DNA of 64,000 bases from an uncultured bacterium (GCA_964589945.1 CAZPVG010000009.1:20066-84065), one strand, 5' to 3'; shown: positions 4,218-49,762, counted from the first letter of the stretch. Notes: generated by a model not told the origin, from the sequence alone. A program made the numbers and translations.

Positions 4218-4241
4218 GGTTCGAGGCGCTCCCGGCGCGGG

Positions 4242-6779: not shown

Positions 6780-6780
6780 G

Positions 6781-28066: not shown

Positions 28067-28181
28067 GCCGCGGCGTGCAGGTGCGTGTCCCGGCGCGCCG
28101 CGGGCGGGTCGCCGGAATGCCCCTCGCGCGGCGCACGGGGCGCTCCGGATGCCCGCAGTCAGGTCGCGTTCCCGGAACGAT

Positions 28182-28210
28182 TTGACAGCGGCGGCGCCTC
28201 CACCCTAGGT
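28182..28210 (+). promoter_or_regulatory. Candidate sigma-70-like promoter for the ACIII operon (TTGACA-N17-CTAGGT)
   Basis: An exact TTGACA hexamer lies 36 nt upstream of the actA ATG. The -10 match is weak (3/6). The promoter consensus of this lineage is unknown. Confidence 0.25.
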
Positions 28211-28222
28211 TGCCGCCCTGCC

Positions 28223-28753: not shown

Positions 28754-28768
28754 AGGACGCGGACACCC

Positions 28769-33854: not shown

Positions 33855-34413
33855 GACCCTGCTGCTGCTGGGCGTGATCGCGCTGTGGTCGGTGTCCTTC
33901 CAGCAGGGCTGCAAGGACCTCAAGAGCTCGCTGACGCACTGGCGCTACTACCCGATCCGCGACATGCGGCAGACCGTCGTGATCGACCCGCAGCGCTACG
34001 ACCCCACGCACCCGCAGTGGCTGACCTTCCGCGGTCCCGACTCGCTGGCGGTGCCGTCCATCGACGTGGACCGGCACATCGGCGAGGCGCCCTACGAGGA
34101 GACGGCGGGCCTGATCCACGACCCGGGCGTGTCGACCCCGGCGTCGATCGTCCGCGGCGACACCCTTTTCCACACGATCTGCACGCCGTGCCACGGCATG
34201 ACGATGAAGGGCGACGGCACCGTCGCGCCGTTCTTCATGCCCCCGCCCGACCTGCTCGCCGAGCAGACGCGCAAGCGGAGTGACGGCTTCATCTTCAGCT
34301 ACGTGCGCCACGGCGGCGTCGTGATGCCGTCGTACGGGAACGCGCTCTCGGCGCACGACGCATGGGACGTGATCCACTACCTCCGCCACATGCAGAAGGT
34401 CAATCCGCGATGA
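33847..34413 (+). CDS. actE: Alternative Complex III subunit ActE, monohaem cytochrome c
   Basis: Signal peptide with a Cys (QQGC, possible lipobox) and a single CTPCH haem motif. Overlaps actD by 8 nt. Confidence 0.8.
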   Translation: MPRTLLLLGVIALWSVSFQQGCKDLKSSLTHWRYYPIRDMRQTVVIDPQRYDPTHPQWLTFRGPDSLAVPSIDVDRHIGEAPYEETAGLIHDPGVSTPASIVRGDTLFHTICTPCHGMTMKGDGTVAPFFMPPPDLLAEQTRKRSDGFIFSYVRHGGVVMPSYGNALSAHDAWDVIHYLRHMQKVNPR

Positions 34414-35666
34414 ACCGAGAGGCCGTACTCCGCGACATCGCCGGCAAGCTGCCGGTGAAGCCGAACGCACGCAAGCGCCAGATCTGGATCGCCTGCCTGC
34501 TCGTCGGCGTCGCGTCGTTCGCGTTCCTGCTGGTGACGAACCCGCTTCGCGCCTGGGGCTCGTGGACGGTCAACACGCTCTACTTCCTCGGCATCGCCGA
34601 GGGCGCGCTCGCGTTCGCGGCGGCCTACCGGCTCGCGAACGGCAAGTGGGGCGGCCCGATCGTGCGCATCGCCGAGTCGTTCTCGGCCTACCTGCCGATC
34701 GGCATCGCGACGCTCGTCGTCCTGCTCGTGGCCGGGATCTGGAAGTACCTCTCGTGGACCCAGGCGGTCGAGCCGCGCATCCAGCCGTTCCTGAACGTGC
34801 CGTTCCTCTACGTGCGCACGCTGGGCGGCGCGCTGCTCTTCTGGTGGCTCGCGCGCAAGATGGTGCGCACCTCGCTGCGGCCCGACCTGCAGGCGCTCAA
34901 GCCGCACGTCTCGCCCGAGCTGAAGCCGGAGTACGAGAAGCTCACCGCGAACTGGAAGGGCGACGAGGCCGAGCGCGACTGGAACCGCCACGAGCTCGCG
35001 CACCTCTCGCCGCAGGTCGCGCTGGCGTTCGCGGTCTTCTTCACCGTGCTCGCGTGGGACTTCATCATGCTGCTGACGCCGAACTGGGTGACGGGCCTGT
35101 TCGGCTGGTTCGTCTGGGCCGGCGCGTTCATCTGCGGCGTCGCGGCGACGGCGCTCATGGCCACGCAGCTGCGCTCGAAATACCGGCTCGAGGCCTACAT
35201 CCGCACGAACATGTTCTGGGACATCGGCAAGGTCCTGTTCGCCTGGTGCATCTTCTGGGGCTACCTGTTCTGGTCGCAGTACCTGCCGATCTGGTACGCG
35301 AACATGCCCGAGGAGACGTGGTGGGTCTTCCTGCGCTTCGAGGAGCCGTGGCGCACGTTCTCGTTCGCGGCGTTCACGCTCATCTTCGTGATCCCGCTCG
35401 TCGGCCTGCTCAACAAGACCTCGAAGACGAACCCGATCCTGCTGCTCTCGTTCTCGCTCATCGTCCTCGCCGGCGTCTGGATCGAGCGGCACGTGCTCGT
35501 GATGCCGTCGCTGAACGCCGAGCACGCGTGGATCGGCCTGCCCGAGGTCGGCGTGACGATCGGGTTCCTCGGGCTGTTCGGCTGGGCGGTGCAGGGCTTC
35601 CTGACCAAGTTCCCCGCCGTGAACGTCATGGACGTCTTATCCGGCGCGCACGGGCCCGAGCACTAG
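34410..35666 (+). CDS. actF: Alternative Complex III subunit ActF (second NrfD-like membrane subunit)
   Basis: ATGA overlap with the actE stop. Polytopic membrane protein homologous in topology to ActC. Confidence 0.8.
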   Translation: MNREAVLRDIAGKLPVKPNARKRQIWIACLLVGVASFAFLLVTNPLRAWGSWTVNTLYFLGIAEGALAFAAAYRLANGKWGGPIVRIAESFSAYLPIGIATLVVLLVAGIWKYLSWTQAVEPRIQPFLNVPFLYVRTLGGALLFWWLARKMVRTSLRPDLQALKPHVSPELKPEYEKLTANWKGDEAERDWNRHELAHLSPQVALAFAVFFTVLAWDFIMLLTPNWVTGLFGWFVWAGAFICGVAATALMATQLRSKYRLEAYIRTNMFWDIGKVLFAWCIFWGYLFWSQYLPIWYANMPEETWWVFLRFEEPWRTFSFAAFTLIFVIPLVGLLNKTSKTNPILLLSFSLIVLAGVWIERHVLVMPSLNAEHAWIGLPEVGVTIGFLGLFGWAVQGFLTKFPAVNVMDVLSGAHGPEH

Positions 35667-35684
35667 CGAGCGTTCACGCACCTT

Positions 35685-35726
35685 CGCGCCCGGGTCCGTT
35701 CGATGGACCCGGGCGCGCGTGTTTTC
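35685..35726 (+). terminator. Rho-independent terminator after actF
   Basis: 13-bp stem CGCGCCCGGGTCC / GGACCCGGGCGCG with a 7-nt loop, followed by GTGTTTT, 19 nt downstream of the actF stop. Confidence 0.7.
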
Positions 35727-35763
35727 CGCCGGCGGGCCGCGGCGCGGCGCCGGCACGGTTGGC

Positions 35764-35850
35764 GCCGGGATGGCGAAACTGGCAGACGCAGCGGACTTAA
35801 AATCCGCTGGGCTTCGGCCCGTGCAGGTTCGATCCCTGCTCCCGGCACCA
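35764..35850 (+). tRNA. tRNA-Leu (anticodon TAA), 87 nt with long variable arm, CCA encoded
   Basis: Acceptor stem GCCGGGA/TCCCGGC, anticodon loop CTTAAAA, extended variable arm GGGCTTCGGCCCG, T-arm GGTTCGATCC, 3' ACCA. Confidence 0.85.
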
Positions 35851-35893
35851 ATCGCGCGCGTTCACGATGCGCGTGGAGGGACCCGCTGCAGGC

Positions 35894-37828
35894 CTAGCGG
35901 AGCCAGACGAGCCGCCGCGACTGCGATTCGCCCGCGCGCGTGAAGCGCACCCAGTACAGCCCGGGCTGTGCACGGCCATTGTCGGACTGGCCGCGCCAGC
36001 GCAGCGTGCCGGTCGCGGGGCCGAGCGCCGCGCCCCAGATCCGACGGCCCGAGAGGTCCAGGACTTCGACTCGTCCGGCGGATCCCACCGAAGGCGGCAC
36101 GAACTCGACGCTGCCCTGCGCGATGGTCGGGCGAACGGAGAAGGAGAGTCGTGGAGTGGTCGTCGCAACGGCAGTCGTGTTCGGGCACGATTCCGGCAGC
36201 GCGCCAATGAGGCCGTAGAGGCCGCCCGCGCCGCACGGGGAGCCCTGTTGCAGGCCCAGGTCGCCCGACGCGAGGTCGCAGAGCCTCGGATCCACCGTGA
36301 GGTTGCTGTCGAGGGACGACCACGCGCCAACGAACGGCGCGACGTAATTGTCCCAGGCATCGTTGAAGGCGAACGACCCCGGGGACTGCGTCGGAAACGC
36401 GCCTCCATACCGGGCGTTCAGGACCGAGAGGTTCCGCTGGACGACCACCGGCGATCCGGTTGGCGGGTTCGGAGACTCGACGCGCAGGCCGTCGCCACCG
36501 TTCAGCACGCAGGTATTGGACGCCAGCGAGTCGGGCATATCCGGCGGTGGATACGACCCCGGTTGCAGCACGATGCCATCACCGCTGTTGGCCCATGCGA
36601 CATTACCGACGACCGAAACCCCGGTGGCGTCCAGCCGGAAGCCCGCGCCGCCGTTGTGGTCGCTCTGGCAGTCCCAGACCGTCGATGTGAACCACGGGGG
36701 ATCCGATGCCGTCGTCGTCTCGGCGATGAGGCGGATGCCATCACCCGCAACATGGGTGACACGCGAGTGAACAAGTCTGAGGGCACTGTACTGGTTCCTG
36801 AGGCGAATTACGATGCCGTCAGCTTCCGCACCATCGACCAACAGGTTCGTCAGATAATGGCCTGGGAAGTGCGCCCAATCCGGCGCAATGGTGAGGGCGT
36901 CCCCGGTTGAGGAAAGTACGGTGTCTGCAACGAGTCCAAGGACTGGAGCATAGGAAGCTGGACATGGCAGCCAGCGAATGGCGCTTCCACAACGCTCGAA
37001 GCGGGAGTTCGAAACGAAGAGTTGCGTGTCGTGGATGGTGGTGGTGTCGCATTCTGCGTTCGACTGCTCGAGCCAGATCGCGTTGCCAGCGATATCTTGC
37101 ACTACACAGGACTCGAGATCGGTGACTCCGTTGCAGACGACCCCGTTCGACGCAGTCTTGAAGTGACAGTTGCTGAAGATGACCGCATCGGGGGTGCTTC
37201 CCCGAGCGAGCACGAGCGTATCTGCGGGTCCTTCAAAAGAGCAGTTCTCAAAGGAGACGGGCCCCGTGGCGCAGGTGGAAGCGTGCAGCGGCGCGCTGTG
37301 AAAATGCAGCCCGTCGAAGCGGAGAAGATTGCTGCTATCGTAGCACTCTAACCAGGTCCGGCCGCAGAAGTCGCAGTTGTGAAAGTTCGGTCCCCCGGGC
37401 GCAGCCACGGAGTTCACCCGGCCCAGAAAGACGCAACTGCGAAACTCGACGGCGATTCCGTCCAGGCTAACCCCCTTTGCATAGGTCAGGCCCACGACGT
37501 GCCAGCTACTCGAAGATAACCGGGGCGCGTCAATGCTGCTTGCCGTCGTTACCGCTGGCCCACCCGACCCCACGATGACGACAGTGGGAATAGCGAAGGA
37601 GAAGCGGAGTGTGTCCGGGTACTCCCCGGGGCTTACGAGGATTGAATCCCGCGGCGAAACGACGAGTTGGTCGATCGCCGGCTGAATGTTTGTGAAATCG
37701 CCGCCGCCGTTGATGTCGACGAGATAGTGCGAGGCGCGCGCCGTCGAGGGCGTGAGCAAGGCCGCGAGGCAGCCCGCGATGATCAGCGCGAGAGGCGCGC
37801 GGGAGAGTCGCGCGAGGGGAGCGTGCAT
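35894..37828 (-). CDS. Secreted right-handed parallel beta-helix (pectate-lyase/NosD-like) protein with a T9SS C-terminal sorting domain
   Basis: Start trimmed to M at 37828 (GGAGGA ribosome-binding site, signal peptide MHAPLARLSRAPLALIIAGCLAALL). Many Asn/Cys/Gly-rich beta-helix repeats. C-terminal ~80 aa (…VEVLDLSGRRIW…GLYWVRF…RLVWLR) match the Por_Secre_tail pattern. Confidence 0.7.
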   Translation of the reverse strand: MHAPLARLSRAPLALIIAGCLAALLTPSTARASHYLVDINGGGDFTNIQPAIDQLVVSPRDSILVSPGEYPDTLRFSFAIPTVVIVGSGGPAVTTASSIDAPRLSSSSWHVVGLTYAKGVSLDGIAVEFRSCVFLGRVNSVAAPGGPNFHNCDFCGRTWLECYDSSNLLRFDGLHFHSAPLHASTCATGPVSFENCSFEGPADTLVLARGSTPDAVIFSNCHFKTASNGVVCNGVTDLESCVVQDIAGNAIWLEQSNAECDTTTIHDTQLFVSNSRFERCGSAIRWLPCPASYAPVLGLVADTVLSSTGDALTIAPDWAHFPGHYLTNLLVDGAEADGIVIRLRNQYSALRLVHSRVTHVAGDGIRLIAETTTASDPPWFTSTVWDCQSDHNGGAGFRLDATGVSVVGNVAWANSGDGIVLQPGSYPPPDMPDSLASNTCVLNGGDGLRVESPNPPTGSPVVVQRNLSVLNARYGGAFPTQSPGSFAFNDAWDNYVAPFVGAWSSLDSNLTVDPRLCDLASGDLGLQQGSPCGAGGLYGLIGALPESCPNTTAVATTTPRLSFSVRPTIAQGSVEFVPPSVGSAGRVEVLDLSGRRIWGAALGPATGTLRWRGQSDNGRAQPGLYWVRFTRAGESQSRRLVWLR

Positions 37829-38554
37829 GGCTGTTCCTCCGACCGACGGCCGCATCCATGCTTCGTAGGGTGACCTTGGTGGGAATGCTAGCACCCGTGA
37901 GCCGTAGCGCCGAGACGTTGCCTCCGACGATCTCGCGGTTGGTACCCCTCGCCAGGACTGCACGGACTCAACTAGGTGTCCGGGTGAGGGGCGGGGACGT
38001 CTTGGGTGGGTTCGGGGTGTTGCGGGTGTTGCGGCTGTTTCGGGCTCCAAGGAGGGGCGCCTCGACGTGCCCGCCATTGCGCGAGGACATGTTCCTTGTC
38101 CAAGGATGCAGGCGCCTCCGAGTGATCGAACGTCACACGGGCGGGTGCAGTTGTCCCGCAGTTGGCGCTCGGCGCTGGACGCTGGTCTAGAGCGCCAAGG
38201 ATGCCTTCTGCTGGCCTCGTGAGAGCTGTCTTGATTCAACACTCACGCAGGATGCGGGGACGTGCCACGGGGCTGCCGTGCATAGCCAGCTTTGGGGGAG
38301 ACGACGCCGCCGACCTGGTCCCGCGTATGTGAGCGGGTCCCCGGTCGAGACATGAGCAGCCCACCGCGCCCGTCTCCATACCCCCCGGGTTGCGCTGTGC
38401 TAGTTCTGTGTCAGAACCATCCGGAGCGACCGGTGGCTGTGTGTTCGAATCAGTCACTACGCCTCTGGGGCGCCACGCATCGCAGCCGCCAATGATGCCC
38501 GTTCGGACGCGTTCGGCACCGATGCTTCCGACCGCGCCAATTGCGGTGCTAGCC

Positions 38555-38609
38555 CTTAAGACCCGCTGGGCGAAAGCCCGTGCAGGTTCGATCCCTGCTC
38601 CCGGCACCA
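38555..38609 (+). repeat. 3' fragment of tRNA-Leu (direct repeat; last 30 nt identical to 35821-35850), att-like scar
   Basis: GTGCAGGTTCGATCCCTGCTCCCGGCACCA is identical. The upstream 25 nt are diverged. No 5' acceptor or D-arm, so it is not a functional tRNA. Confidence 0.7.
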
Positions 38610-38716
38610 CAACGGCGACTCGGTGCGACGGGCGACGGTCCCCGTTCTGTCCCCGAGTGACGAATCGCTCGCGGCTTCACGGGCTCGGGTGAATCGGCGC
38701 TGCTCGCCGGACCGCG

Positions 38717-39586
38717 CTACTTCTTCTCCGCCGGCTCGACCAGCTTCGCAACCAGCGTCCGCAGCGCCGAGCGCCACGGCTCCATCCCGCCTTCGGCGGG
38801 GGCGACGATCGAAGCCAGGTCGTCCTCGGTGAGGGTCTCCTGGGCGCCGAGCACGGAGGCGCCGAAGCGCGTCCGGCGGGCGAGGAGCCCCTCGGCGCCG
38901 ACCCGCATGACGCGTCCGGCGGGCGTGAGCACCACGCCGGTGAGCTGCAGGACCTGCACCGGTGTGTCGAGCGAGGTGAGCCAGGGCACCGGCATCGTGC
39001 GGTCGGTGCCGATCTCGATGACCTTCCCACCCTTCCAGGTGGCCTGGCGCACCCACTGCTCCTCGAACCCGAGCTGGATCGCGACGACCGCGTCGATCGA
39101 GTCGCCGGCGCCGGCGATCGCGCGCTCGCGCCAGGCGCGGCCGGGCTCCTCGACGCCGAACGTCATGCGGCGCGGGGGGCCGGGGTCGATCTCGTCCGAT
39201 CCGCGGGGCAGGCCGTCGGGCCCGGTCCCGCCGCGCCGGCAGCCGAAGCGCACGTTCGGTCCGTCGCGCAGGGGCCAGTCGCCGCCGGGCAGCGGAGCGG
39301 TCAGCTCGATCCGGTCCAGCTCGAGTCGGAGCGAATCGAGCAGCGCCGCGAGGGCGGGGGAGCGGTCGGGCGTGGGATCCAGCGAGGCCGGGTCGTCGCG
39401 GAAGGAGACCGCGACGTGCGCGACGCGGTCCTCCGCGGCGGGCGGCTTGCCGTGATAGAAGGGCGGCCGGTCGAAGTCGCCGCGGAAGACCTCCGCGGCG
39501 GCGGGGGCGGCGGACAGTGCGACCAGCAGGCCGAGAAGCACGAAGCGCTCCGGGCGCGCGGCCCGCATTCCAAAGGTGGGGTTCAT
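38717..39586 (-). CDS. Hypothetical exported protein
   Basis: 289-aa ORF with an N-terminal signal peptide (alternative start at 39568). No recognisable motif. Confidence 0.45.
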   Translation of the reverse strand: MNPTFGMRAARPERFVLLGLLVALSAAPAAAEVFRGDFDRPPFYHGKPPAAEDRVAHVAVSFRDDPASLDPTPDRSPALAALLDSLRLELDRIELTAPLPGGDWPLRDGPNVRFGCRRGGTGPDGLPRGSDEIDPGPPRRMTFGVEEPGRAWRERAIAGAGDSIDAVVAIQLGFEEQWVRQATWKGGKVIEIGTDRTMPVPWLTSLDTPVQVLQLTGVVLTPAGRVMRVGAEGLLARRTRFGASVLGAQETLTEDDLASIVAPAEGGMEPWRSALRTLVAKLVEPAEKK

Positions 39587-40285
39587 TGGCGCGGCAACCT
39601 AGACGTGGCCGGTTGGCCGGTCAAGAAGCAAGGACGCCGGCCTCGGCTCGCTCCCGGCGACCCTTCTCGCATCGCCTCCCGCGTCGGGACCGGCCCCCGG
39701 CGATGCCGCCGCGTTCGTCCGAGGGAGCCACGTTTCAACTGTTCCCACGGACCAGAATGCTCTCCGGCGCTTCGCATCACTCGCGAACGTGGACGCACGA
39801 GAGTTCTCGCTCGCACGACCCGCGACCGCCAATGCCCCGTCGGGAGAAACCGCCGCCCCCCCGATTGCAGGGTCCTGACTCATGCCAGCAGACTGCCCGC
39901 TGACCGACTACGGGAGTCCCGGAGGGTCATGCTACTTCCGGATACTTGCGCGTTGTTCCTTGAAGGTTACTCTGTTTCCTGAATCACGATCCTGATGCTG
40001 GGGTCAGTACACAACCAGGTTCAGTCCGTGCCGCGCTGAGCCGAGACATCTTTCGGTGGGAGTTCCGCTCGGCGCGGCTTGATGGAATGGGCCGCGATCC
40101 TGTTGGGGTGCGGTCCCGTTCCGGCGGGATTGGAGCCGTTCGCAAGACGGCCCCGGTCCCTTGACACCGGCAACACGACAACAACGCGTCCCTGCGGGAT
40201 TCGAAGGCCCGAGCAAGTCGCATCTCGGCCCGTGGTGCGCGACAGGATTCGCAAGCAACAGGCACGAATGCCGAGGGAACACCAC

Positions 40286-41233
40286 ATGTCACGTGAGATG
40301 GCGTTGCGACGTCTGCCCCTCATTCTCGCGTTGTTTGCGGGTCTGGCGGTCCTGGCCGGCTTCTCCGTGGCGAAGCCGAGCGCCGAGACCGGGGTTCACG
40401 AGAGCCAGGCCTGCCTCGATTGCCACGACGGGATGGACGCGACGCTCGTCGGCACGGCGCACCGGGTCACCGGCAAGGGGGCCCGCGTCGCCTGCACCGA
40501 CTGCCATGCCGGGCCGAGCGCGCACTGGGAGGACGACCCGGAGAAGAACCCGATGCCCAACCCGGGGAAGATGACCTCCACGGCGGAGGCCCGGGTGTGC
40601 ACCCAGTGCCACGAGAACTCGCACCAGCAGAACATGCTCGAGAAGAACGTGCACGCCATGAACAACGTGGCGTGCAGCGCGTGCCACAGCGTGCACGGGT
40701 CGAAGCACTACTCGCTGCTGCGCAAGCCGCAGAACGAGCTGTGCGAGTCCTGCCACACGCGCGTGGCCGGCCAGTTCGCACGGCCGTACCGCCATCCGAT
40801 CGAGGAAGGCGTCATCCAGTGCACCGACTGCCACATGACGCTCGACCGGACCACCCGGCCCCTTTCCAAGGACGGCACGAACGTCTGCCTGAAGTGCCAC
40901 GGCGACCTCGCCGGGCCGTTCCCCTACGAGCACGAGGCCACGCTCGATCACTCGACCGAAGAGGGCGGCTGCATCTCGTGCCACGACCCGCACGGCTCGT
41001 CGCTTCCGCGCATGCTCAAGCAGCCTTACCAGCCGCCGCACGAGCAGCTCTGCACGCAGTGCCACTCGATCCCGCCCAAGCACCTCTCGAACCGGATGCA
41101 CGGGACGCGCTGGAACGGCGTGGCCTGCAACGAGTGTCATACCGACATCCACGGCTCCTACGACAACCGGTGGCTCCTGAGCACGTCCCTTCGGGCTCAG
41201 GGCTGCATGAACGGGGCCTGTCATGGCCGCTAG
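40286..41233 (+). CDS. Periplasmic decahaem c-type cytochrome, MtrA/MtoA/PioA-like
   Basis: Signal peptide, then 10 CxxCH motifs in ~290 mature residues, plus a terminal C-x4-CH. The size and haem density are those of the MtrA family. Confidence 0.75.
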   Translation: MSREMALRRLPLILALFAGLAVLAGFSVAKPSAETGVHESQACLDCHDGMDATLVGTAHRVTGKGARVACTDCHAGPSAHWEDDPEKNPMPNPGKMTSTAEARVCTQCHENSHQQNMLEKNVHAMNNVACSACHSVHGSKHYSLLRKPQNELCESCHTRVAGQFARPYRHPIEEGVIQCTDCHMTLDRTTRPLSKDGTNVCLKCHGDLAGPFPYEHEATLDHSTEEGGCISCHDPHGSSLPRMLKQPYQPPHEQLCTQCHSIPPKHLSNRMHGTRWNGVACNECHTDIHGSYDNRWLLSTSLRAQGCMNGACHGR

Positions 41234-41246
41234 GACGGTGTCCGAC

Positions 41247-42815
41247 ATGCGAACTCAGAGGATGGCAGTGGGGATCGCGGCGCTGATGCTCCTGGCCGGC
41301 GCGAGCGTGGCGGGAGCGGCGAAGCTGAACGGCACCGTGAAGGTGGGCAACATCTTCCTGGACGAGACGGGCGACCGCTCGACGGTCCAGGAGACCTTCG
41401 ACATCTACGACGGCTTTGCGGTCAGCCAGGTCCTGCTCGACGGCAGCCTGCAGCCCCAGAGCCGGTTCGTGCTCGACCTGCGCGACATCAACCTCGACTC
41501 GCGCCAGGGGAACTTCAACTATCGCCTGCCCGGCCTCTTCAAGGTGCGGGCGGCCTACGACCAGAACCGCTACGTGTTCGATCCCGGCCGCGGCGTCACG
41601 TCGGAGCGCAAGAACTGGCAGGTCGGGCTGCAGGTCACCCCGATGAAGTCGCTCGTGCTCTCGGGCGACCTCAACCGCATCACGCGCACGGGTGACCGGC
41701 TCTCGTTCCCGCCCGAGCCGGGAACGCTGCTCGGCACCGTCAGCTCGCTCGGGACGCGCTACGACAACGCGCTGCTCAACTCACAGTTCGGCGCCGAGTA
41801 CCACCGGGGCCGCGCGGGCGGGGCCGTCTCCGTCCAGCTCTCGGACTACTCGGACGACCTCAACGGCACGGCCGACCGGAAGGGGCAGGTGTGGGCGGCG
41901 CGGCTCTACGCCCCGATGCCGTTCTACAACCGGTGGAACAACCTGTTCCGGGCGTCGTACGGCACGCGCAAGCTCACCGACGGCGGGGTCGAGTACAAGA
42001 TGTCGAGCTTCCAGTACACGGGGATCCTGGCGCCGCGCGAGTCCTACCAGCTGCGGTACGCGTTCGAGGCGAGCCGCGTGAAGGACAACGCGCTCGACCT
42101 GCAGACGGACCGCATCCAGAACGACCTCGACGCGACCTGGTTCCACAAGTACGGGAACCTCAACGCCGGCTTCGGCTACGAGACGAACGACGACGACATC
42201 ACGCTGACCGACTACATGAGCTGGCACGCGGGAGGCTCGTTCCGCCCGGACAAGCGCCTGAACGTGCGGTTCGAGTACAACGGGCGCGTGAAGAACGACC
42301 AGGAAGACCTGACGCTGCTCAAGGACATTGAGTCGGCGAGCTACCGCGGACGCCTCGAGATCCGGCCGAACGATCGCATCACGCTCGGCGGGGAGTACGC
42401 GAAGCGGCGCCGCGAGATGCCGGACATCCAGGTCGTGGTGAGCGGCATCACGGCCGGCGCGTTCGCGAGGTACGAGCAGCCGAAGTGGGGTGCCGCGTCG
42501 CTCGACTACACCCACGCCATCGACGAGTACGACGACCGTCTCGCGCCGTTCAATGTCGTGACCGCGATCACGACGGCGCGGGTGGATCTCTCGCGGATCA
42601 AGAACCTGGATCTCGCGAGCGGCGTCACCTACCTCGACATCGGACGCGACCTCGACATCGAGAAGTCCATCGTGTTCGTGGAGGGGGGATACAAGTTCGC
42701 GGGCCGCTATCACCTGGATGCGAAGTACAACGTCTACAACTACGACGACTACATCCTGCTCGACCGTTACTACACGGCGAACGTCGTCCGGGTGAACCTC
42801 GGATACGACCTGTAG
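41247..42815 (+). CDS. Outer-membrane beta-barrel protein, candidate MtrB/MtoB/PioB-like porin partner of the adjacent cytochromes
   Basis: Signal peptide (AGASVAGAA), no Cys, and alternating amphipathic Tyr/Gly/Asp/Asn-rich beta-strand pattern throughout. 522 aa. Starts 14 nt after the decahaem gene stop. Family assignment is by context and composition only. Confidence 0.55.
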   Translation: MRTQRMAVGIAALMLLAGASVAGAAKLNGTVKVGNIFLDETGDRSTVQETFDIYDGFAVSQVLLDGSLQPQSRFVLDLRDINLDSRQGNFNYRLPGLFKVRAAYDQNRYVFDPGRGVTSERKNWQVGLQVTPMKSLVLSGDLNRITRTGDRLSFPPEPGTLLGTVSSLGTRYDNALLNSQFGAEYHRGRAGGAVSVQLSDYSDDLNGTADRKGQVWAARLYAPMPFYNRWNNLFRASYGTRKLTDGGVEYKMSSFQYTGILAPRESYQLRYAFEASRVKDNALDLQTDRIQNDLDATWFHKYGNLNAGFGYETNDDDITLTDYMSWHAGGSFRPDKRLNVRFEYNGRVKNDQEDLTLLKDIESASYRGRLEIRPNDRITLGGEYAKRRREMPDIQVVVSGITAGAFARYEQPKWGAASLDYTHAIDEYDDRLAPFNVVTAITTARVDLSRIKNLDLASGVTYLDIGRDLDIEKSIVFVEGGYKFAGRYHLDAKYNVYNYDDYILLDRYYTANVVRVNLGYDL

Positions 42816-42928
42816 CCGTGACGCAGTGGAAGCGGGGCCTGACTCCGGTCGGGATTCCGCGTGATCTCGATTCGGAGATGAAAGTGCAGAGTGCAATGGG
42901 CCGATTCAGCCTGAGGGAGGGTGCGGCG

Positions 42929-43930
42929 ATGCTTCTTCTGAAGAGGGTGGTGTTGCTGTCGGCGGTCGCCTTGGTGGCGTTCGGCTTGACGGCGTGTGAG
43001 CGCAAGATCACGCGGATCGAGCTCGCCTCGGGACCGCTGACGTGCGCGGACTGCCACAACACGAGCAGCCTGATCACGGGCAAGGAAACCGAGTGGGCGG
43101 AGTCCGTGCACGGCACGGGCACGGCCTACCTCCGCGGGACGAGCGCGGGCTGCGCGGGCTGCCACTCCGGCGGCGCGTTCGTGAAGATGATTGCGGCGGG
43201 CCAGAACCCGGGTACGGTCACCGAGGGTGACCCGGATCCGACGCGCCAGGACTGCCGTACCTGCCACAACATCCACACGACCTACACGATGGCGGACTTC
43301 TCGCTCCGGACGACGGCGCCGGTGAACCTGTTCGCGATGGATACCCCGACGGTCTTCGATGGCGGCGAGGGCAACCTGTGCGCGAACTGCCACCAGCCGC
43401 GGCGCGACGGCCCCGTGGCCGTGAACGGTACGATCACCGGGATCTCGACCCACTGGGGTCCGCACCACGGACCGCAGAGCGCGATGCTCCTCGGTGTCGC
43501 GGGCGCCGGCGTCACGGGCACCCCGGCCGGCCACTACCAGGGCGTGCCGAACACCTGCGTGACCTGCCACCTGGGTTCCGGGCTGGACCACCACTTCGAG
43601 CCGTCGGCCACGACGTGCGCGAAGTGCCACCCGGGCGCGACGAACTTCGACATCGACAACGTCCAGACCGAGATCGCGGCCCTCGGCGACTCGCTCGGCG
43701 AGATGCTGCTGAACCTCAATCTCATCAGCGAGAACAGCCCGGACGGGCACCCGACGGTCACTTCGGCGCCGGAGGCCCAGGGCGTCGCGCTCTACAACTG
43801 GCTCTACGTCATGCACGAGGACAAGAGCATGGGCGTCCACAACGCCGACTACGCCCGGGCGCTGCTGCAGAAGGGCCTCCAGGAGCTGTCGCCGGCTCCG
43901 AAGGGCGTGGGGGCGGTCGCCCGGCGGTAG
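42929..43930 (+). CDS. Hexahaem c-type cytochrome lipoprotein
   Basis: GAGGGAGG ribosome-binding site, lipoprotein signal MLLLKRVVLLSAVALVAFGLTAC, six CxxCH motifs (CADCH, CAGCH, CRTCH, CANCH, CVTCH, CAKCH). Confidence 0.75.
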   Translation: MLLLKRVVLLSAVALVAFGLTACERKITRIELASGPLTCADCHNTSSLITGKETEWAESVHGTGTAYLRGTSAGCAGCHSGGAFVKMIAAGQNPGTVTEGDPDPTRQDCRTCHNIHTTYTMADFSLRTTAPVNLFAMDTPTVFDGGEGNLCANCHQPRRDGPVAVNGTITGISTHWGPHHGPQSAMLLGVAGAGVTGTPAGHYQGVPNTCVTCHLGSGLDHHFEPSATTCAKCHPGATNFDIDNVQTEIAALGDSLGEMLLNLNLISENSPDGHPTVTSAPEAQGVALYNWLYVMHEDKSMGVHNADYARALLQKGLQELSPAPKGVGAVARR

Positions 43931-43985
43931 GGAAGCGAATCTCGAATCCCGCACCCGGGCCGCCCGGGTGGGCGGCCAGCAGTCC

Positions 43986-44018
43986 GCAGCCGCGGCCGGC
44001 ATCGCCGGCCGCGGCTGC
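43986..44018 (+). terminator. 15-bp perfect hairpin downstream of the cytochrome module (terminator candidate)
   Basis: GCAGCCGCGGCCGGC-atc-GCCGGCCGCGGCTGC, 56 nt after the stop at 43930. No U-tract. Confidence 0.45.
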
Positions 44019-44290
44019 TGCGCTTCCGCGGCCCGGGCCGGTGCCTTCCCGGCGGCCCCGCCTCCGGCCCCCCATGGTCCCGCCTGGCCGGGCCAGCCCC
44101 CTCAAGCCGGAAGGCCGCTCCTGCCGAAAACGAGGACCGGGTCTCCGTACCGTTCTCCCCCCGGGGACGGACCCTGACGCTCCCCGAGGGGCCCGGTGCC
44201 ATCTGAGATATGGTGCCGCCCATCCATCCTCTGACCGTGACCTTCGGAAGCCGCGCACGGTCCGAGCGCGCCGTTTTCCGAGGGAAAAGC

Positions 44291-47071
44291 ATGTCCGGAC
44301 CACACGATTTCGTCCTGCGCGCGAACGCCGACTACATCGACCAGCAGTTCGCCCGCTGGCAGGCCGATCCGTCCTCCGTCCCTCCCGAATGGGCCCTCTT
44401 CTTTGCCGGCGTGGACCTGGGCTCCCGCCGGGAAACGGGCGAGGTCCCGACCCAGGCCCGCTCCGAGGCGGGGGTCCGCAGCCTGATCCACGCCTATCGT
44501 GAGTTCGGGCACCTCGTCGCCCGGCTCGACCCCCTCGGCACGGGCGAGACCCGCCATCCGCTCCTCGAGCTGGAGGCTTCGGGGCTCGGTCCTGCGGACT
44601 TCGACCGGGAGGTCCGCGGGGCGCCGTTCCTCGGCGAGTTCGGCGGAACGCTCCGGCAGCTCGTCGAGGCGCTGCGCACGACCTACTGCGGTACGCTCGC
44701 GGTCGAGTACCTCGACATCGCGGACGCCGCCCAGCGTGACTGGCTCGCGGACCGGATCGAGCGCGGTCTCAACCGCCCGAGCCTCTCGCCGGCCGAACGC
44801 ATCCGCATCCTCCGCTCGATGCTCGTCGCCGACGGGCTCGAGCAGTTCCTGCACGCGCGCTACACGGGGCAGAAGCGCTTCTCGCTCGAGGGCGCCGCCA
44901 GCCTCATCCCGATGTTCGAGGCCCTGACGATCGAAGCGGGGCTGCTCGGAGTCGAGTCGCTGCAGATGGGCATGCCGCACCGCGGGCGGCTCAACTTCCT
45001 CGCGAACATCATGAAGAAGCCGCTCGAGGCGATCTTCAGCGAGTTCGAGGCGAGCTTCGCGCCGGTGGACGTGCAGGGCCACGGTGACGTGAAGTACCAC
45101 CTCGGCTACTCGAGCGTCATGCCGTTGCCGAACGGGCGCAGCATCGCGCTGAGCCTGTGCTACAACCCGAGCCACCTCGAGTTCGTGAACCCCGTCGTGC
45201 TCGGCTCCCTGCGCGCCAAGCAGGAGGCGGCGGGGGACGCCGCCCGCACCCGCGGCGTTCCGGTGCTGATCCACGGCGACGCGGCGTTCGCGGGCGAGGG
45301 CATCGTGGCGGAGACCCTGGCGCTGGGGCAGCTGCCGGGCTACGTCACGGGCGGCACGATCCACGTCATCGTGAACAACCAGATCGGGTTCACGACCTCG
45401 CCGAAGGCCACGCGCCCGACCCGGTACCCGACGGCGATCGCGCGCGCGCTCGACGTCCCCGTCTTCCACGTGAACGGGGACGATCCCGAGGCCTGCGTGC
45501 GGGCGATGTCGCTCGCGCTCGCGTGGCGCATGCGGTTCCAGCGGGATGTGTTCATCGACCTCGTCTGCTACCGCAGGCACGGCCACAACGAGATGGACGA
45601 TCCGACCTTCACGCAGCCCGTGATGTACAGGGCGATTTCCTCGCACGTGCCGGCATCACGCCGGTACGCCGAGCGGCTCGTGGCCGAGGGTGTTCTCGAC
45701 CAGGCGGCGCTCGGCAAGATCGAGACCGAGATCGACTCCAGCTTCCGGGCCGCCCACCGCCGGGCGACGAACGCGCCGGTGCCGCCCGTGCGCGGCACGC
45801 CCTCGGGCATGTGGCGCGGCCTCGACTGGGCCGCCGAAGACTGGTCGGCCGACACGCGCGTGCCGCGGGAGACGCTCGAACAGGTCCTGCACGGACTCAC
45901 GAAGCTGCCGGAGGGGTTCCAGCCGCACCGCAAGATCGCCCAGCTCGCGGCCGACCGCCGGAAGATGTTCCTCGAGGACCGCATCGACTGGTCGCTCGGC
46001 GAGGCGCTGGCCTACGGATCGCTGCTGCTCGAGGGGCGCAACGTGCGCCTGACCGGGCAGGACTCCGGGCGCGGCACGTTCACGCACCGGCACGCCGTCC
46101 TTCACGACGCGGAGGACGGGCGGATGTGGACGCCCCTGCAGCACCTCGCCCAGGAACAGGGCCGCTTCGAGATCCTCGACACCATGCTGAGCGAGGCCGC
46201 CGTGCTCGGCTTCGAGTACGGCTACAGCACGGCCGACCCGCACACGCTCTGCCTCTGGGAGGCTCAGTTCGGCGACTTCACGAACGTGGCCCAGGTGGCG
46301 GTGGACCAGTTCGTCGCGAGCGGCGAGGCGAAGTGGGGCCGCATGTCGGGGCTCACGCTCCTGCTGCCGCACGGCTACGAGGGACAGGGGCCGGAGCACT
46401 CGAGCGCCCGCCTCGAGCGGTTCCTCGAGCTGTGCGCCGACCGCAACCTGCAGGTGTGCAACCTCACGACGCCGGCGCAGCTCTTCCACGCGCTGAGGCG
46501 CCAGCTCCACCGGCGCTTCCGCAAGCCGCTCGTGATCATGAGCCCGAAGAGCCTGCTGCGGCACAAGCTCGCGGTCTCGGCCGTGTCCGAGTTCGAGTCG
46601 GGCACCTTCCAGCCCGTGATCGACGACCGGAAGACCGATCCGGCCGCGGTGAGCCGCGTGCTCGTCGTCTCGGGCAAGTTCTACTACGCCCTGCTCGAGG
46701 CCCGGGCCGCCTCGAAACGCGACGACGTCGCGATCATGCGGCTCGAGCAGCTCTACCCGTTCCCCGGCGGCGAAGTGAAGGCGGCGCTTGCGCGCTACCC
46801 GAACCTCCGGGACGTGCTCTGGGTGCAGGAAGAGCCGGCGAACATGGGGGGCTGGCGCGCGATGCGACACCGCATCGACGGCGTCACGCCGCCCGGCGCG
46901 CGCCTGCGGCGTGTCTCCCGTCCGTCGTCGTCCTCGCCGGCGACGGGCTACTACCTGCTGCACCAGCAGCAGGAGCGGCAGATCCTGGCGGAGGCGTTCG
47001 AATCGGCCGCCCCCGGCGACGGGGCGGCGCCGGCCGCCGCCGGTCGCACTTCGAAGGGAGTGAAGCGATGA
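44291..47071 (+). CDS. sucA: 2-oxoglutarate dehydrogenase E1 component
   Basis: 927 aa, conserved N-terminus …YIDQQF…W, TPP motifs. GAGGGAAAAG ribosome-binding site. Confidence 0.9.
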
Positions 47072-48351
47072 CGATCGAGATCCGGGTTCCCCGCCTGGCG
47101 GAGTCCATCTCGGAGGCGGTCCTCGTCGAGTGGCTGAAGTCCGACGGCGCCGCCGTGAGGACGGACGAGCCCGTCGCGACGCTGGAAACCGACAAGGCGG
47201 CGGTCGAGATCGTCGCCGACGCCGCGGGCGTACTGCACCACGGGCGAAAGGTCGGCGAGACCGTGCAGGTGGGTGACGCGCTCGGCCAGATCGAGGCTGG
47301 AACCGTGAAAGCGCCCGCGCCCTCACCCGGCAACGGCGCCGGGGGCCACGCGCCATCGGCCGGCGCCGCCGCGACCCCTGCACCCGCGCCGGCCGCGGCG
47401 GCGGCTTCCGCCGCCGTGCCCGCGGCGACGGCGACGTCTCCCGACCGTCCGCTCTCGCCCGCCGTGCGCCGCATCGTCGAGGAGAACGGGCTCGACGCCG
47501 CCGCGATCCGGGGAACGGGTCCGGGGGGTCGCGTGCTCAAGGAGGACGCGCTGCGCGCCGCCGCCGCGCCCGCCTCCGCCGCTGCGGCCGAGGCGCCTGC
47601 AGCCGCGCCCGCCTCCGCCGCCCCCGTCGCGACGCCCGAGACGGCCCCGGGCGAAGGGGAGCGGGTCGTGCCGATGAGCCGGATCCGCCAGCGCATCGCC
47701 GAGAAGCTCGTGCGGGCGCAGCAGTCGGCGGCGATCCTGACGACCTTCAACGAGGTGGACATGACGCGCGTGCTCGACACACGCGCGCGCTGGAAGGAAG
47801 CGTTCGAGAGCAAGCACGGCGTCCGGCTGGGTTTCATGAGCTTCTTCGCGCGGGCCTGCCTCGAGGCGATGCGCGACGTGCCGGAGGTCAACGCGGAGAT
47901 CCGCGGGACCGACATCGTCTACCACGACTTCGTCCACCTCGGCATCGCGGCCAGCACGCCCCGCGGTCTCGTCGTGCCGGTCGTCCGCAACGTCGAGCGG
48001 CTCGACTTCGCGGGGATCGAGCGCGAGATCGCACGCCTCGCACAGCGTGCCCGGGACGGCGCGCTGACGCCCGAGGAACTTTCGGGCGGCACCTTCACGA
48101 TCACGAACGGCGGCGTCTTCGGATCGCTCCTCTCGACGCCCATCCTCAACCCGCCGCAGAGCGGCATCCTCGGCATGCACAAGATCGAGAAACGCCCGGT
48201 CGTCGTGGACGACGCGGTCGTCGTGCGGCCGATGATGTACCTCGCGCTCTCCTACGATCACCGCCTGATCGACGGGGCGCAGGCCGTGACGTTCCTCGTG
48301 CGCGTGAAGGAGCGCCTCGAGGATCCCGAGCGGCTGATGCTCTCGGTGTGA
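47068..48351 (+). CDS. sucB: Dihydrolipoyllysine-residue succinyltransferase (E2)
   Basis: ATGA overlap with the sucA stop. Lipoyl domain ETDKA, Ala/Pro linker, catalytic DHRLIDG. Confidence 0.9.
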
Positions 48352-48358
48352 GCCGCCG

Positions 48359-49762
48359 GTGAGCGAGCCCGTCTTCGACCTCATCGTCATCGGCTCGGGA
48401 CCCGGGGGCTACACGGCCGCCCTGCGCGCGGCGCAGCTCGGCATGAAGACCGCGTGCGTCGAGAAGTACCCGGTGGTGGGCGGGACCTGCCTGAACGTGG
48501 GCTGCATCCCGAGCAAGGCGTTGCTGGATTCGAGCGAGCACTTCGACCTCGCGCGGCACGGCTTCGCCCAGCACGGCATCCGGGCCACCGTCGAGCTCGA
48601 CCTGCCGGCGATGATGAAGCGCAAGGACGGCGTCGTGCGCGATCTCACGCGGGGCGTCGAGGGCCTGTTCCGCCGCGCCGGGATCGAGCGCGTCGAGGGC
48701 ACGGGCCGCATCGCGCGACCCGGCCTCGTCGAGGTCGCGACAGCCGGAGGGACGCGCGCGCTCGAAACGCGCCGCATCCTCGTCGCGACGGGCAGCAAGG
48801 CGGCGGCGCTGCCCGGCATCCCGTTCGACGGCCGGCGGATCGTCCACTCGACCGACGCGCTCGCGCTTCCCGAGGTCCCGAAGCGGCTGATCGTGGTCGG
48901 GGCGGGGGCGATCGGTCTCGAGCTCGGCTCCGTCTGGCGGCGTCTCGGGGCCGAGGTCCTCGTGCTCGAGTACCTGGGGCGGATCACGCCGACCATGGAC
49001 GAGGAGGGCGCGAAGCTCCTTCAGCGCGCGCTCCAGCGTCAGGGCATGACGTTCCGCTTCGGCGTCTCGGCGAAGTCCGCGCGGGTCAAGGGCGGCCAGG
49101 TCCTCGTCGAGGTCGTGCCGGCGGAAGGTGGCGAAGCGACGGTGGAGACCTGCGACGTGCTGCTCGTCGCCGTCGGGCGGCGCCCGTACACCGAGGGCCT
49201 CGGCCTCGCCGAGGCCGGGGTGCGGACGGACGAGCGCGGCCGGATCGAGGTGGACGCGCACTGGAGCACGAACGTGCCCGGCATCTGGGCGATCGGCGAC
49301 GTGATCGCCGGCCCGATGCTCGCGCACAAGGCGGAGGAGGAGGGCATCGCCTGCGTCGAGCGGATGAACGGGCTCGCGGGCCACGTCGCCTACGAGGCGA
49401 TCCCGAACGTCGTCTACACCTGGCCGGAGTTCGCCTCCGTCGGGCTCACCGAGCAGGAGGCGAAGGAACGCGGGCACGAGGTCGCCGTCGGGGCCTTCCC
49501 GTTCCTCGCGAACGGACGCGCGAAGGCGATGGGCGAGAAGGACGGGCAGGTCCGCATCGTGGCGGACGCGAAGACCGACCGCATCCTCGGCGCGCACATC
49601 GTCGGCCCCCGCGCGAGCGACCTCGTCGCCGAGCTCGTGCTCGCGATCGAGCTGGGCGCGAGTGCCGAGGACGTCGCGCGGACCGTCCACGCCCACCCGA
49701 CGCTGCCCGAGGCGGTGCGCGAAGCCGCGCTCGCCGTGGCCAAGCGGGCCCTGAACGCCTGA
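48359..49762 (+). CDS. lpdA: Dihydrolipoyl dehydrogenase (E3)
   Basis: FDLIVIGSGPGGY, redox-active GGTCLNVGCIPSK, 467 aa. Confidence 0.9.
   Translation: MSEPVFDLIVIGSGPGGYTAALRAAQLGMKTACVEKYPVVGGTCLNVGCIPSKALLDSSEHFDLARHGFAQHGIRATVELDLPAMMKRKDGVVRDLTRGVEGLFRRAGIERVEGTGRIARPGLVEVATAGGTRALETRRILVATGSKAAALPGIPFDGRRIVHSTDALALPEVPKRLIVVGAGAIGLELGSVWRRLGAEVLVLEYLGRITPTMDEEGAKLLQRALQRQGMTFRFGVSAKSARVKGGQVLVEVVPAEGGEATVETCDVLLVAVGRRPYTEGLGLAEAGVRTDERGRIEVDAHWSTNVPGIWAIGDVIAGPMLAHKAEEEGIACVERMNGLAGHVAYEAIPNVVYTWPEFASVGLTEQEAKERGHEVAVGAFPFLANGRAKAMGEKDGQVRIVADAKTDRILGAHIVGPRASDLVAELVLAIELGASAEDVARTVHAHPTLPEAVREAALAVAKRALNA

Follow-up and report, generated by a model that had tools for sequence, protein, structure and literature searches.

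A candidate compact MtrAB-type electron conduit with a hexahaem lipoprotein partner in uncultured bacteria

Mtr-type conduits are the best-understood bacterial route for electrons across the outer membrane, and the question raised by the locus described here is whether three adjacent genes of an uncultured bacterium, two for multihaem cytochromes and, between them, one for a barrel-like protein, encode a conduit of this kind. We report a computational analysis of these genes, termed c1, barrel and c3, within a 64,000-nucleotide stretch of DNA (the window), and of related loci in other genomes. The system of reference is the MtrAB core of Shewanella MtrCAB (PDB 6R2Q; Edwards et al. 2020, PMC7198977), which has the paralogues DmsEF and MtrDE.

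The three genes are co-directional and lie at 40286-41233 (c1), 41247-42815 (barrel) and 42929-43930 (c3), with every element found where the initial annotation had placed it and in the order that it had given. Its spacing of 113 nt between barrel and c3 (42816-42928) also stands, but the gap between c1 and barrel (41234-41246), previously given as 14 nt, is counted here as 13. A terminator scan found no terminator-like site on the + strand within or between the genes, and scanning the module for promoters and terminators gave nothing else usable. The order of 10+1-haem cytochrome, barrel and 6-haem cytochrome is kept in essentially all of 33 independent genome loci, a recurrence from which we conclude that the module is not a chance arrangement. 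The 11-motif c1 is intact in 29 of the 33 and frame-shifted in one, the contigs of the remaining three beginning inside the c1 homologue or inside the barrel gene, and the hexahaem c3 gene is found in 32. As in the window, the barrel adjoins an MtrA-type c1 in all 30 related loci where the contig covers the upstream gene, while the genes that flank the module are unrelated and vary from locus to locus. The short gaps, the missing terminator-like site and an order kept across phylum-level distances are consistent with co-transcription. A divergent upstream gene of 289 aa (38717-39586) was considered as a fourth component and rejected, its homologue being present in one related locus only, on the opposite side of the module. 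Eisenbacteria, Krumholzibacteria and other uncultured bacteria, mostly unclassified MAGs, are the sources of the module-bearing loci, and the host of the window, first taken to be Gemmatimonadetes-like, is most likely a relative of Candidatus Eisenbacteria and not a member of the Gemmatimonadetes.

The first product, c1 (+ strand; ATG at 40286, stop at 41233), is a 315-aa MtrA/DmsE-like multihaem cytochrome c, predicted to be periplasmic, with a Sec signal peptide at its N-terminus (MSREMALRRLPLILALFAGLAVLAGFSVA, followed by K). Counting in the translation bore out the signal peptide, the ten CxxCH motifs and the C-terminal C-x4-CH (CMNGACH) reported initially, among 22 Cys and 26 His in total. 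The eleventh motif (C307-M-N-G-A-C-H313; 41204-41224, + strand) lies 2 residues before the C-terminus and is kept in 30 of 30 relatives examined, having the form G-C-x4-C-H in all c1 homologues examined but one, which is without the preceding Gly; it is absent from a canonical DmsE-family paralogue in a related locus (L033, 8945-9958). With exactly 22 Cys and 22 His conserved throughout the c1 family, the predicted number of bis-His haems is 11 instead of 10, and c1 would be better described as a candidate 11-haem (undecahaem) cytochrome. The decahaem of the initial annotation therefore holds for the ten haems colinear with those of MtrA and fails in its haem count.

The kinship of c1 was examined by profile and sequence searches. 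It matches TIGR03508 (DmsE-family decahaem) with E 1.7e-48 across profile positions 2-257 of 258, at a score of 165.4 bits that falls under the curated cutoff of 192.2; the canonical paralogue in L033 scores 254.8 bits. The best match among PDB sequences (phmmer) is MtrA itself (6r2q_A, E 6.4e-21), query residues 41-292 aligning with chain residues 65-324 such that all ten haems are colinear, whereas NrfB models match the first five haems only (residues 40-159, E 1e-7 to 1e-14). A full-length match to TIGR03508 and ten haems shared with 6r2q, against five with NrfB, place c1 with MtrA/DmsE rather than with NrfB/TorC, as had been proposed.

The second gene (41247-42815, + strand; ATG at 41247, stop at 42815) encodes a Cys-free outer-membrane protein of 522 aa with a signal peptide, predicted to be of the 26-strand MtrB type, and its start is borne out by the homologue consensus, which begins 'MRT...'. 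Structure prediction gives a confident beta-barrel (pLDDT 84.7) of 26 antiparallel strands, upholding the barrel suspected from composition, and by two methods the best solved match over the whole length of this model is MtrB, on which it superposes at 2.9 A with an identical strand number. The protein is indeed shorter than MtrB, as first noted, but with the same 26 strands it does not form a smaller barrel; given this equality of strand number, the model suggests that the missing length is probably accounted for by loops shorter than the long surface loops of MtrB.

In sequence the barrels form a family of their own. The window protein has no match to Pfam PF11854 (MtrB_PioB) at E up to 1, nor any Pfam match of its own; PF11854 weakly matches 13 of 30 barrel relatives (best E 3.1e-7), the more distant relatives reach 16-20 bits against a gathering cutoff of 23, and for ten distant representatives the matches are sub-threshold at best. 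A profile of 30 homologues finds no match among PDB sequences even at E 10, so that the link to MtrB is a structural one, together with the weak Pfam matches in relatives. An exhaustive search of 1.84 billion representatives with the barrel profile returned no canonical MtrB/PioB, all matches being fragments or proteins between 505 and 557 aa long. Could the barrel be no more than a porin for solutes or a channel for export, and the cytochromes unrelated NrfB-like periplasmic carriers that happen to share its operon? We judge this very improbable: both methods clearly put MtrB first, c1 follows MtrA/DmsE across twice the haems that it shares with NrfB, the three-gene unit is kept across distant lineages while its flanks change, and domain scans found neither a plug domain nor a TonB box.

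The third gene, c3 (42929-43930, + strand), encodes a hexahaem c-type cytochrome lipoprotein of 333 aa with an NrfA/OcwA-like C-terminal helical region. Its start, ATG 42929, is the one called in the database for P0121 (333 aa, 100% identical); other in-frame ATGs lie at 42878 (350 aa) and 42896. The lipobox L-T-A-C (42986-42997, + strand), as read from the sequence, places the lipidated Cys at residue 23 of the 333-aa form and is followed by a conserved stretch, [DEST]-R-x-I-T-x-[IV]. This Cys is kept in most homologues, and some homologues have no lipobox; a hint of inner-membrane retention from Asp at +2 was dropped, as that position is D, E, S or T among homologues. With its lipobox and six motifs, all CxxCH and none CxxCK, the protein is the six-motif lipoprotein of the initial annotation, and the sixteen His that are invariant among 35 homologues would be enough for bis-His ligation of all six haems.

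The identity of c3 as MtrC/OmcA or OmcS was considered and rejected. There is no match to TIGR03507 (MtrC/OmcA) at E up to 1, and a profile search of the PDB at E 10 returned no OmcS, OmcE or OmcZ chain; PF22113 reaches 29.5 bits against a cutoff of 30, spanning three haems only. Six CxxCH in 333 aa also contrast with the ten haems of MtrC/OmcA, carried in two pentahaem domains flanked by beta-barrel domains, and the partner is accordingly a hexahaem and not a decahaem MtrC, as originally described. The AF2 model of c3 is of low confidence (pLDDT 59.5), making its fold matches hints only: the best by Foldseek is OcwA (6i5b; E 8.6e-4, TMq 0.35), with 25% identity over 198 aligned columns. Searching PDB sequences with the c3 family profile gave marginal matches to NrfA (3ubr, E 0.002; 1oah, E 0.044), the alignment covering the last two haems and a 'W.YV..E.S.G.HN' helix. 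OcwA and OmhA are cell-surface multihaem reductases of the Gram-positive Thermincola and Carboxydothermus and belong to a wider group homologous to NrfA (PMC6703420, PMC9250108). The model and the profile thus suggest a weak resemblance of c3 to NrfA and to the surface reductase OcwA, in a C-terminal module of two haems plus helices with a conserved adjacent His-His, but c3 differs from OcwA (9 haems), OmhA (11) and NrfA (5) in having 6 haems, in being a diderm lipoprotein and in being encoded with a barrel.

This resemblance, weak as it is, admits a reading in which c1 and the barrel feed c3 as a catalytic enzyme of NrfA/OcwA type, acting not on minerals but on a soluble or colloidal substrate such as nitrite, hydroxylamine, sulfite or polysulfide, much as the Shewanella MtrAB paralogue DmsEF feeds a surface enzyme (PMC7198977). 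The NrfA-like alignment of the last two haems and helices, and OcwA as best fold match, speak for it; the absence of CxxCK among the six motifs, with conserved His enough for six bis-His haems, speaks against it, as do similarities that are marginal and drawn from a low-confidence model, and OcwA itself is assigned to iron-oxide reduction. We consider such an enzyme improbable.

We propose instead that c1, barrel and c3 probably form a compact MtrAB-type trans-outer-membrane electron conduit, a previously uncharacterised relative of Shewanella MtrAB. In the proposed conduit c1, with ten MtrA-like haems and one more at its C-terminus, would be threaded through the 26-strand barrel, which would insulate it from lipid; the N-terminal haems would extend into the periplasm and the C-terminal end would reach the cell surface, the C-terminus of MtrA being the externally facing end (PMC7198977). 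The porin-cytochrome conduit first suggested for this locus is thereby supported. The computed evidence is that c1 is homologous to MtrA and carries the 11-haem signature, that the barrel is MtrB-like in fold, that the three genes are conserved as a unit, and that quinol-dehydrogenase-like and giant multihaem cytochromes neighbour this unit in relatives. Counting against it are a tie between barrel and MtrB made of a predicted structure and weak matches in relatives, the score of c1 under the TIGR03508 cutoff and the marginal similarities of c3 to OcwA and NrfA.

Within this conduit c3 would be the dedicated redox partner, passing electrons to putative acceptors that are insoluble or polymeric: Fe(III) or Mn(IV) oxides, humics or other cells. 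In Mtr and Pcc systems the outer partner is typically a lipidated multihaem cytochrome (PMC4245776, PMC6344600), and the best fold match of c3 is a cell-surface iron reductase; on both grounds we slightly favour a position on the outer face of the outer membrane, though no sequence feature fixes the membrane side and some homologues are without a lipobox. Electrons would enter from the quinol pool via a quinol dehydrogenase of the inner membrane. In relatives this role would fall to a cytochrome of CbcL-like or NapC/NirT type whose gene adjoins the module: CbcL-like fusions of multihaem cytochrome and cytochrome b are found there in L015 and L020 and NapC/NirT-type hexahaems in L014, L016 and L021. 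Cytochromes of 35 and 42 haems lie beside the module in L010 and L012, and in an unrelated low-GC contig (L036) a member of the c3 family adjoins a different porin-cytochrome-like cluster. In the window the nearest quinol-side candidate would be an alternative-complex-III-like operon 4.6 kb upstream of the module; the surroundings of the module in the other loci contain no ActA homologue, and alternative complex III was rejected as a conserved partner and kept as a local candidate.

Mtr-type conduits are reversible in principle, and the direction of electron flow is for this reason undecidable from sequence. We lean, with some reserve, towards outward flow. The same architecture could also serve an inward conduit for Fe(II) oxidation or electron uptake, of MtoAB/PioAB type, with c1 taking up electrons at the surface and c3, a periplasm-facing lipoprotein relay and counterpart of MtoD or PioC, handing them to alternative complex III or to terminal oxidases. 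pioABC and mtoAB-mtoD have the same order of cytochrome, barrel and third gene, the last of these encoding a periplasmic carrier (PMC10654088, PMC6344600), and this counts against the outward reading; MtoAB and PioAB, moreover, function without an extracellular cytochrome, and a short-looped barrel and an extra C-terminal haem could expose the outer end of c1 for direct reaction (PMC7198977). MAGs of Eisenbacteria and Krumholzibacteria are reported to carry Cyc2-type iron oxidases (PMC9769843, PMC7914226), and the aerobic traits of the window, alternative complex III and the 2-oxoglutarate dehydrogenase of the TCA cycle, mean that Fe(II) oxidation or facultative use fits as well as metal reduction. 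Known periplasmic relays (MtoD, PioC, STC, PpcA), however, are small and soluble, whereas c3 is a lipidated hexahaem, the CbcL-like, NapC/NirT-type and 35-42-haem cytochromes of the relatives are typical of outward transfer in Geobacter-type organisms, and alternative complex III is not a conserved neighbour. An inward conduit is, on balance, rather unlikely.

How, then, does the outward conduit that we favour compare with known systems? It shares with MtrCAB the ten MtrA-colinear haems, the adjacent 26-strand barrel and a lipoprotein multihaem cytochrome in the cluster, but its barrel is of about 520 aa, rather than about 650-700 aa, and of a separate sequence family; c1 differs from MtrA in its conserved eleventh motif at the outward-facing C-terminus and its score below the TIGR03508 cutoff, and c3, with six haems, stands outside the MtrC/OmcA family in a gene order of A-B-C rather than C-A-B. 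MtoAB of Sideroxydans and PioAB of Rhodopseudomonas likewise combine an MtrA-type cytochrome, a 26-strand-type barrel and a third redox gene with no MtrC homologue; their third gene, however, encodes a small, soluble, periplasmic protein (the monohaem MtoD, the HiPIP PioC) in place of a lipidated 333-aa hexahaem, MtoB and PioB are long members of Pfam MtrB_PioB, unlike the short barrel here, and MtoA and PioA have ten haems against 10+1 motifs. The Geobacter Pcc system comprises an 8-haem periplasmic cytochrome, a porin-like protein and a 12-haem outer cytochrome (OmbB-OmaB-OmcB; Shi et al. 2014, PMC4245776), none homologous to Mtr proteins (PMC6344600). Our module differs in its haems (10+1 and 6), in its ties to MtrA and MtrB and in a porin gene that is not first, the Geobacter order being ombB-omaB-omcB, porin first, and not omaB-ombB-omcB as the initial annotation had it (PMC4245776).

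A barrel family of 505-557 aa, an 11-motif c1 and a non-MtrC hexahaem partner would make the module the distinct variant that was suspected. The accompanying claim that porin-cytochrome modules were unknown in an FCB/Gemmatimonadetes background was overstated: pcc clusters have been reported in Ignavibacterium album, an FCB-group genome (PMC4245776), mtrAB in Zixibacteria MAGs (PMC9769843) and MtrCAB in a Gemmatimonas MAG (PMC8805035). We found no description in the literature of the specific compact c1-barrel-c3 family. The NrfA/OcwA lineage fold is one used by Gram-positive iron reducers, and a bolder reading, possible but in our estimation doubtful, is that the module represents a trans-outer-membrane wire of a distinct, self-contained class, which seems to be restricted to Eisenbacteria, Krumholzibacteria and other uncultured lineages. 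In such a wire an 11-haem chain, protruding from a barrel apparently poor in loops, would pass electrons to a surface hexahaem lipoprotein of that lineage instead of an MtrC-type cytochrome.

Surveys that require an mtrC gene have placed Mtr-type conduits in three phyla only (PMC8805035). The compact family, carried by many soil and sediment genomes of Eisenbacteria and Krumholzibacteria, would escape such surveys as well as the Pfam MtrB_PioB model. With about 520 aa the barrel would be a naturally 'minimal' MtrB sheath around an 11-haem wire, informative for the roles of the barrel loops and of the terminal haem, and the pairing of an Mtr-type conduit with a non-MtrC partner bears on the modularity of these systems. 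For the organisms, the module suggests that Eisenbacteria and Krumholzibacteria, little-known bacteria of soils and sediments tied to iron cycling so far by generic marker matches only, are able to exchange electrons with extracellular minerals, and it offers a testable genetic basis for that exchange. Should the bolder reading be true, two abundant uncultured phyla of soil and sediment would be taking part, unrecognised, in the redox cycling of metals or humics.

The three co-directional open reading frames that the initial annotation had placed on the forward strand are borne out at exactly the same positions, 40286-43930, by our reading of the window sequence. The first, c1 (40286-41233, +), encodes a 315-aa cytochrome that carries ten CxxCH motifs behind a typical Sec signal peptide, with CMNGACH near the C-terminus; the second (41247-42815, +) encodes a cysteine-free protein of 522 aa with a signal peptide, hereafter the barrel, whose start at ATG 41247 agrees with the 'MRT...' start in the consensus of its homologues; and the third, c3 (42929-43930, +), encodes a protein with six CxxCH motifs and a lipobox, L-T-A-C. 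The gene call for c3 is that of a public database entry (P0121, 333 aa, 100% identical), other in-frame ATGs lying at 42878 and 42896. Gaps of 13 nt and 113 nt follow c1 and the barrel gene, respectively, and no terminator-like hairpin was found on the forward strand within or between the three genes. The MtrA homology, MtrB-like fold, haem signature and synteny of this module are established computationally, and its best-supported reading is as an insulated wire of the MtrAB type across the outer membrane, in which c1 would be threaded through the barrel and c3 would serve as the dedicated redox partner.

Amongst the NCBIfam models, the DmsE-family decahaem model is matched by c1 end to end (positions 2-257 of 258, E 1.7e-48), with a score of 165 bits that lies below the curated cutoff of 192, and the NrfB and NrfH models are matched partially (E 1e-11 to 1e-14). 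The top match amongst the sequences of solved structures is 6R2Q chain A, the MtrA of the Mtr complex (E 6.4e-21), residues 65-324 of which align with residues 41-292 of c1 and cover all ten haems, whereas NrfB aligns over the first five haems only; the choice between MtrA and NrfB that had been posed for this cytochrome thus falls to MtrA. The hit-table labels for this PDB entry are misleading: 6r2q_A, given as 'Cystathionine beta-synthase', which is evidently wrong, is the decahaem MtrA, and 6r2q_B, given as 'Uncharacterized protein', is the barrel MtrB of the same complex. The C-terminal C-x4-CH of c1 is, to judge from its relatives, no accident of this one genome, as the cytochromes upstream of the barrel in all the related loci examined have it too, 2-4 residues from the C-terminus; it is missing from the canonical DmsE-family paralogue of L033 (254.8 bits, above the cutoff). 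When 30 members of the c1 family are aligned, the residues shared by 93% or more of them include exactly 22 Cys and 22 His. As this is the number for eleven covalent bis-His haems, we describe c1 as a predicted undecahaem cytochrome; the initial annotation was correct in its ten CxxCH motifs and extra C-x4-CH, and the decahaem it proposed is revised to eleven predicted haems. The C-terminus of MtrA is its externally facing end, the N-terminus projecting into the periplasm (PMC7198977), and homology would put the extra haem of c1 at the wire's outer end.

The window barrel has no match in Pfam or NCBIfam, and a profile of 30 barrel homologues found nothing amongst PDB sequences. An AlphaFold2 model based on the alignment of these 30 homologues is confident (mean pLDDT 84.7, pTM 0.72) and contains 26 beta-strands, in keeping with the beta-barrel that had been expected of this 522-aa protein. 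In a Foldseek search of the PDB the model finds MtrB (6r2q_B) first (E 5.4e-15, TM 0.77), the remaining matches, to TonB-dependent transporters and LptD, having a TM of 0.54 or less. MtrB likewise has 26 strands, and its surface loops, reaching out ~45 A, cover MtrA for the most part (PMC7198977); since the strand numbers, that of the window barrel being predicted, are equal, the residues that the barrel lacks relative to MtrB would lie mostly in loops. Searched exhaustively with a profile, 1.84 billion representatives yielded 182 clusters, amongst which all the full-length ones are of 505-557 aa and none is a protein of MtrB/PioB size (650-800 aa); at the level of sequence the family is self-contained. 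PF11854 (MtrB_PioB) is nevertheless weakly matched by 13 of the 30 relatives (best E 3.1e-7), some of them in register, the window barrel itself falling short of the Pfam threshold, and the recurrence of these weak matches suggests remote homology with MtrB/PioB rather than convergence.

A scan restricted to one genome per species yielded 33 loci encoding the barrel, from Candidatus Eisenbacteria, Krumholzibacteria and further uncultured MAGs, the latter mostly unclassified and in a few cases labelled Fibrobacteraceae, Vicinamibacterales or Hyphomicrobiales. The 11-motif cytochrome lies directly upstream of the barrel in every locus with sufficient contig (one copy is frame-shifted), and downstream of the barrel every locus except L016 encodes a colinear protein with six CxxCH motifs (32/33). 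Because the flanking genes differ between loci, and neither the divergent upstream gene nor the downstream sucA of the window is associated with the module elsewhere, the unit consists of exactly three genes. Two groups of the third gene can be told apart across loci L003-L035 by their identity to the window c3 (63-85% and 29-36%); in the former the third gene is better conserved than the barrel (~50% identical), a pattern that suggests partner swapping or different constraints. A low-GC contig (L036, 7001-14054) carries a c3 homologue (61% identity) that lacks the lipobox and has a plain signal peptide; the genes beside it form a different porin-cytochrome-like cluster and encode a pentahaem lipoprotein, a putative outer-membrane protein of 691 aa, an NHL-repeat protein and a cytochrome with 11 haems. 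The c3 family is thus common to distinct conduit types and to very different genomes.

The c3 family is large and well conserved, with 16 His (six from the motifs and ten others) and the motif H-W-G-P-H-H-G-P-Q invariant across 35 homologues. The lipidated Cys is retained in most of them, followed by a conserved [DEST]-R-x-I-T-x-[IV], and is replaced by a plain signal peptide in a few. Some homologues have collagen-like G-x-y linkers directly after the lipidated Cys and several have a Pro/Ala-rich tail ending GGSK or GGSR (P0203, P0224, P0150, P0175, P0184, P0195 and P0197 in our c3 alignment, A2, are listed for these features); the window c3 has neither. Membership of the MtrC/OmcA family is ruled out, there being no TIGR03507 match and a PF22113 score just below the cutoff. 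As a single sequence c3 found no relative amongst PDB sequences, and the family profile weakly matches NrfA (E 0.002 and 0.044) over the last two haems and the next helix ('W.YV..E.S.G.HN'). The AF2 model of c3 is poor (pLDDT 59.5), and its only near-significant Foldseek matches are the two chains of OcwA (E 8.6e-4 and 1.8e-3; 25% identity over 198 columns), a cell-surface reductase of Thermincola with nine haems to the six of c3. OcwA belongs to the NrfA homologous group (PMC9250108), of which c3 is probably, though with low certainty, a hexahaem offshoot.

The conduit is preceded, at a distance of 4.6 kb, by an alternative-complex-III-like operon (28067-35666, +), which comprises the pentahaem ActA (28067-28753, +), which is the sole further multihaem gene in the window, the molybdopterin/4Fe-4S ActB (28754-31930, +), the NrfD-type ActC (31729-33306, +), the monohaem ActE (33817-34413, +) and an ActF-like membrane protein (34284-35666, +). 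The operon is a possible local quinol:cytochrome c link for the conduit, and was not found beside the module in other loci. Between the two lie genes for a 782-aa right-handed beta-helix protein (35894-38242, -), whose C-terminus gives a very weak match to a T9SS sorting domain (E 0.077), and for a 289-aa protein with no family match (38717-39586, -), the sole homologue of which amongst the fetched loci is in L013, on the other side of the module. Most of the window has a GC content of 0.72-0.77, which falls to 0.64-0.70 across 32000-44000; this dip spans the end of the operon, the two minus-strand genes and the conduit, and might reflect gene content or acquisition. Downstream comes the gene for 2-oxoglutarate dehydrogenase E1, followed by two ORFs whose translations resemble E2 and dihydrolipoamide dehydrogenase (44210-49762, +), and genes for 6-phosphogluconate dehydrogenase, glucose-6-phosphate dehydrogenase, transaldolase, glucokinase and fumarase lie upstream (2154-8295; 17706-19145, -; 24286-25455, -). 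Together, these central-metabolism genes suggest an aerobic or facultative heterotroph.

Of the 33 loci, 11 have additional multihaem genes next to the module. Directly beside it, L015 (2224-4863) and L020 (8574-11273) encode a CbcL-like cytochrome in which 19 CxxCH motifs are fused to a cytochrome b561/FdnI-type membrane domain at the C-terminus, the architecture of CbcL-like inner-membrane quinol dehydrogenases. NapC/NirT-type hexahaems of ~510-565 aa, with a NapC/NirT N-terminal region, adjoin it in L014 (2304-4001), L016 (9544-11106, -) and L021 (3166-4701, -), accompanied by cytochrome c554-like tetrahaems in L014 (4002-4682) and L016 (11183-11836); six-CxxCH ORFs of similar size to these hexahaems occur in L025 and L035. 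Immediately upstream of the module, L010 (2105-4732) and L012 (1499-4756) encode giant cytochromes with 35 and 42 CxxCH motifs, respectively, built of tandem MtrA/DmsE-like units with up to 22 paired-CXXCH domains. Extracellular electron transfer pathways are accompanied by such inner-membrane quinol dehydrogenases and long-range cytochromes, and the CbcL-like and NapC/NirT-like neighbours lead us to consider that electrons probably flow outward through the conduit. By analogy with Mtr and Pcc, in which lipidated multihaem cytochromes are the outer partners, and with the surface reductase that is its top fold match, c3 may well face outward. An inward conduit, for Fe(II) oxidation or electron uptake, would accord with a gene order like that of pioABC, with the aerobic traits of the window and with published Cyc2 matches in the Eisenbacteria and Krumholzibacteria phyla (PMC9769843, PMC7914226); set against these neighbours, we consider it the less likely direction.

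Porin-cytochrome modules as such are already known, and the novelty that the initial annotation claimed for an FCB/Gemmatimonadetes-like background goes too far, since a pcc module has been reported in Ignavibacterium album (PMC4245776), mtrAB in Zixibacteria (PMC9769843) and MtrCAB in a Gemmatimonas MAG (PMC8805035). The Eisenbacteria and Krumholzibacteria papers that we searched contain generic FeGenie-type matches only, such as Cyc2, 'OmcS' or 'iron cycling genes' (PMC8478452, PMC7914226, PMC9769843), and no description of the c1-barrel-c3 module was found in the searchable literature on these phyla. The family is distinguished by a compact sheath of ~520 aa with 26 predicted strands, by a conserved, predicted eleventh haem at the end of the wire presumed to face outward, by a hexahaem partner that, from its sequence, is not MtrC-like and by a range apparently limited, amongst the genomes scanned, to Eisenbacteria, Krumholzibacteria and other uncultured lineages. 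The module is relevant both to work on extracellular electron transfer and to the ecology of these uncultured phyla.
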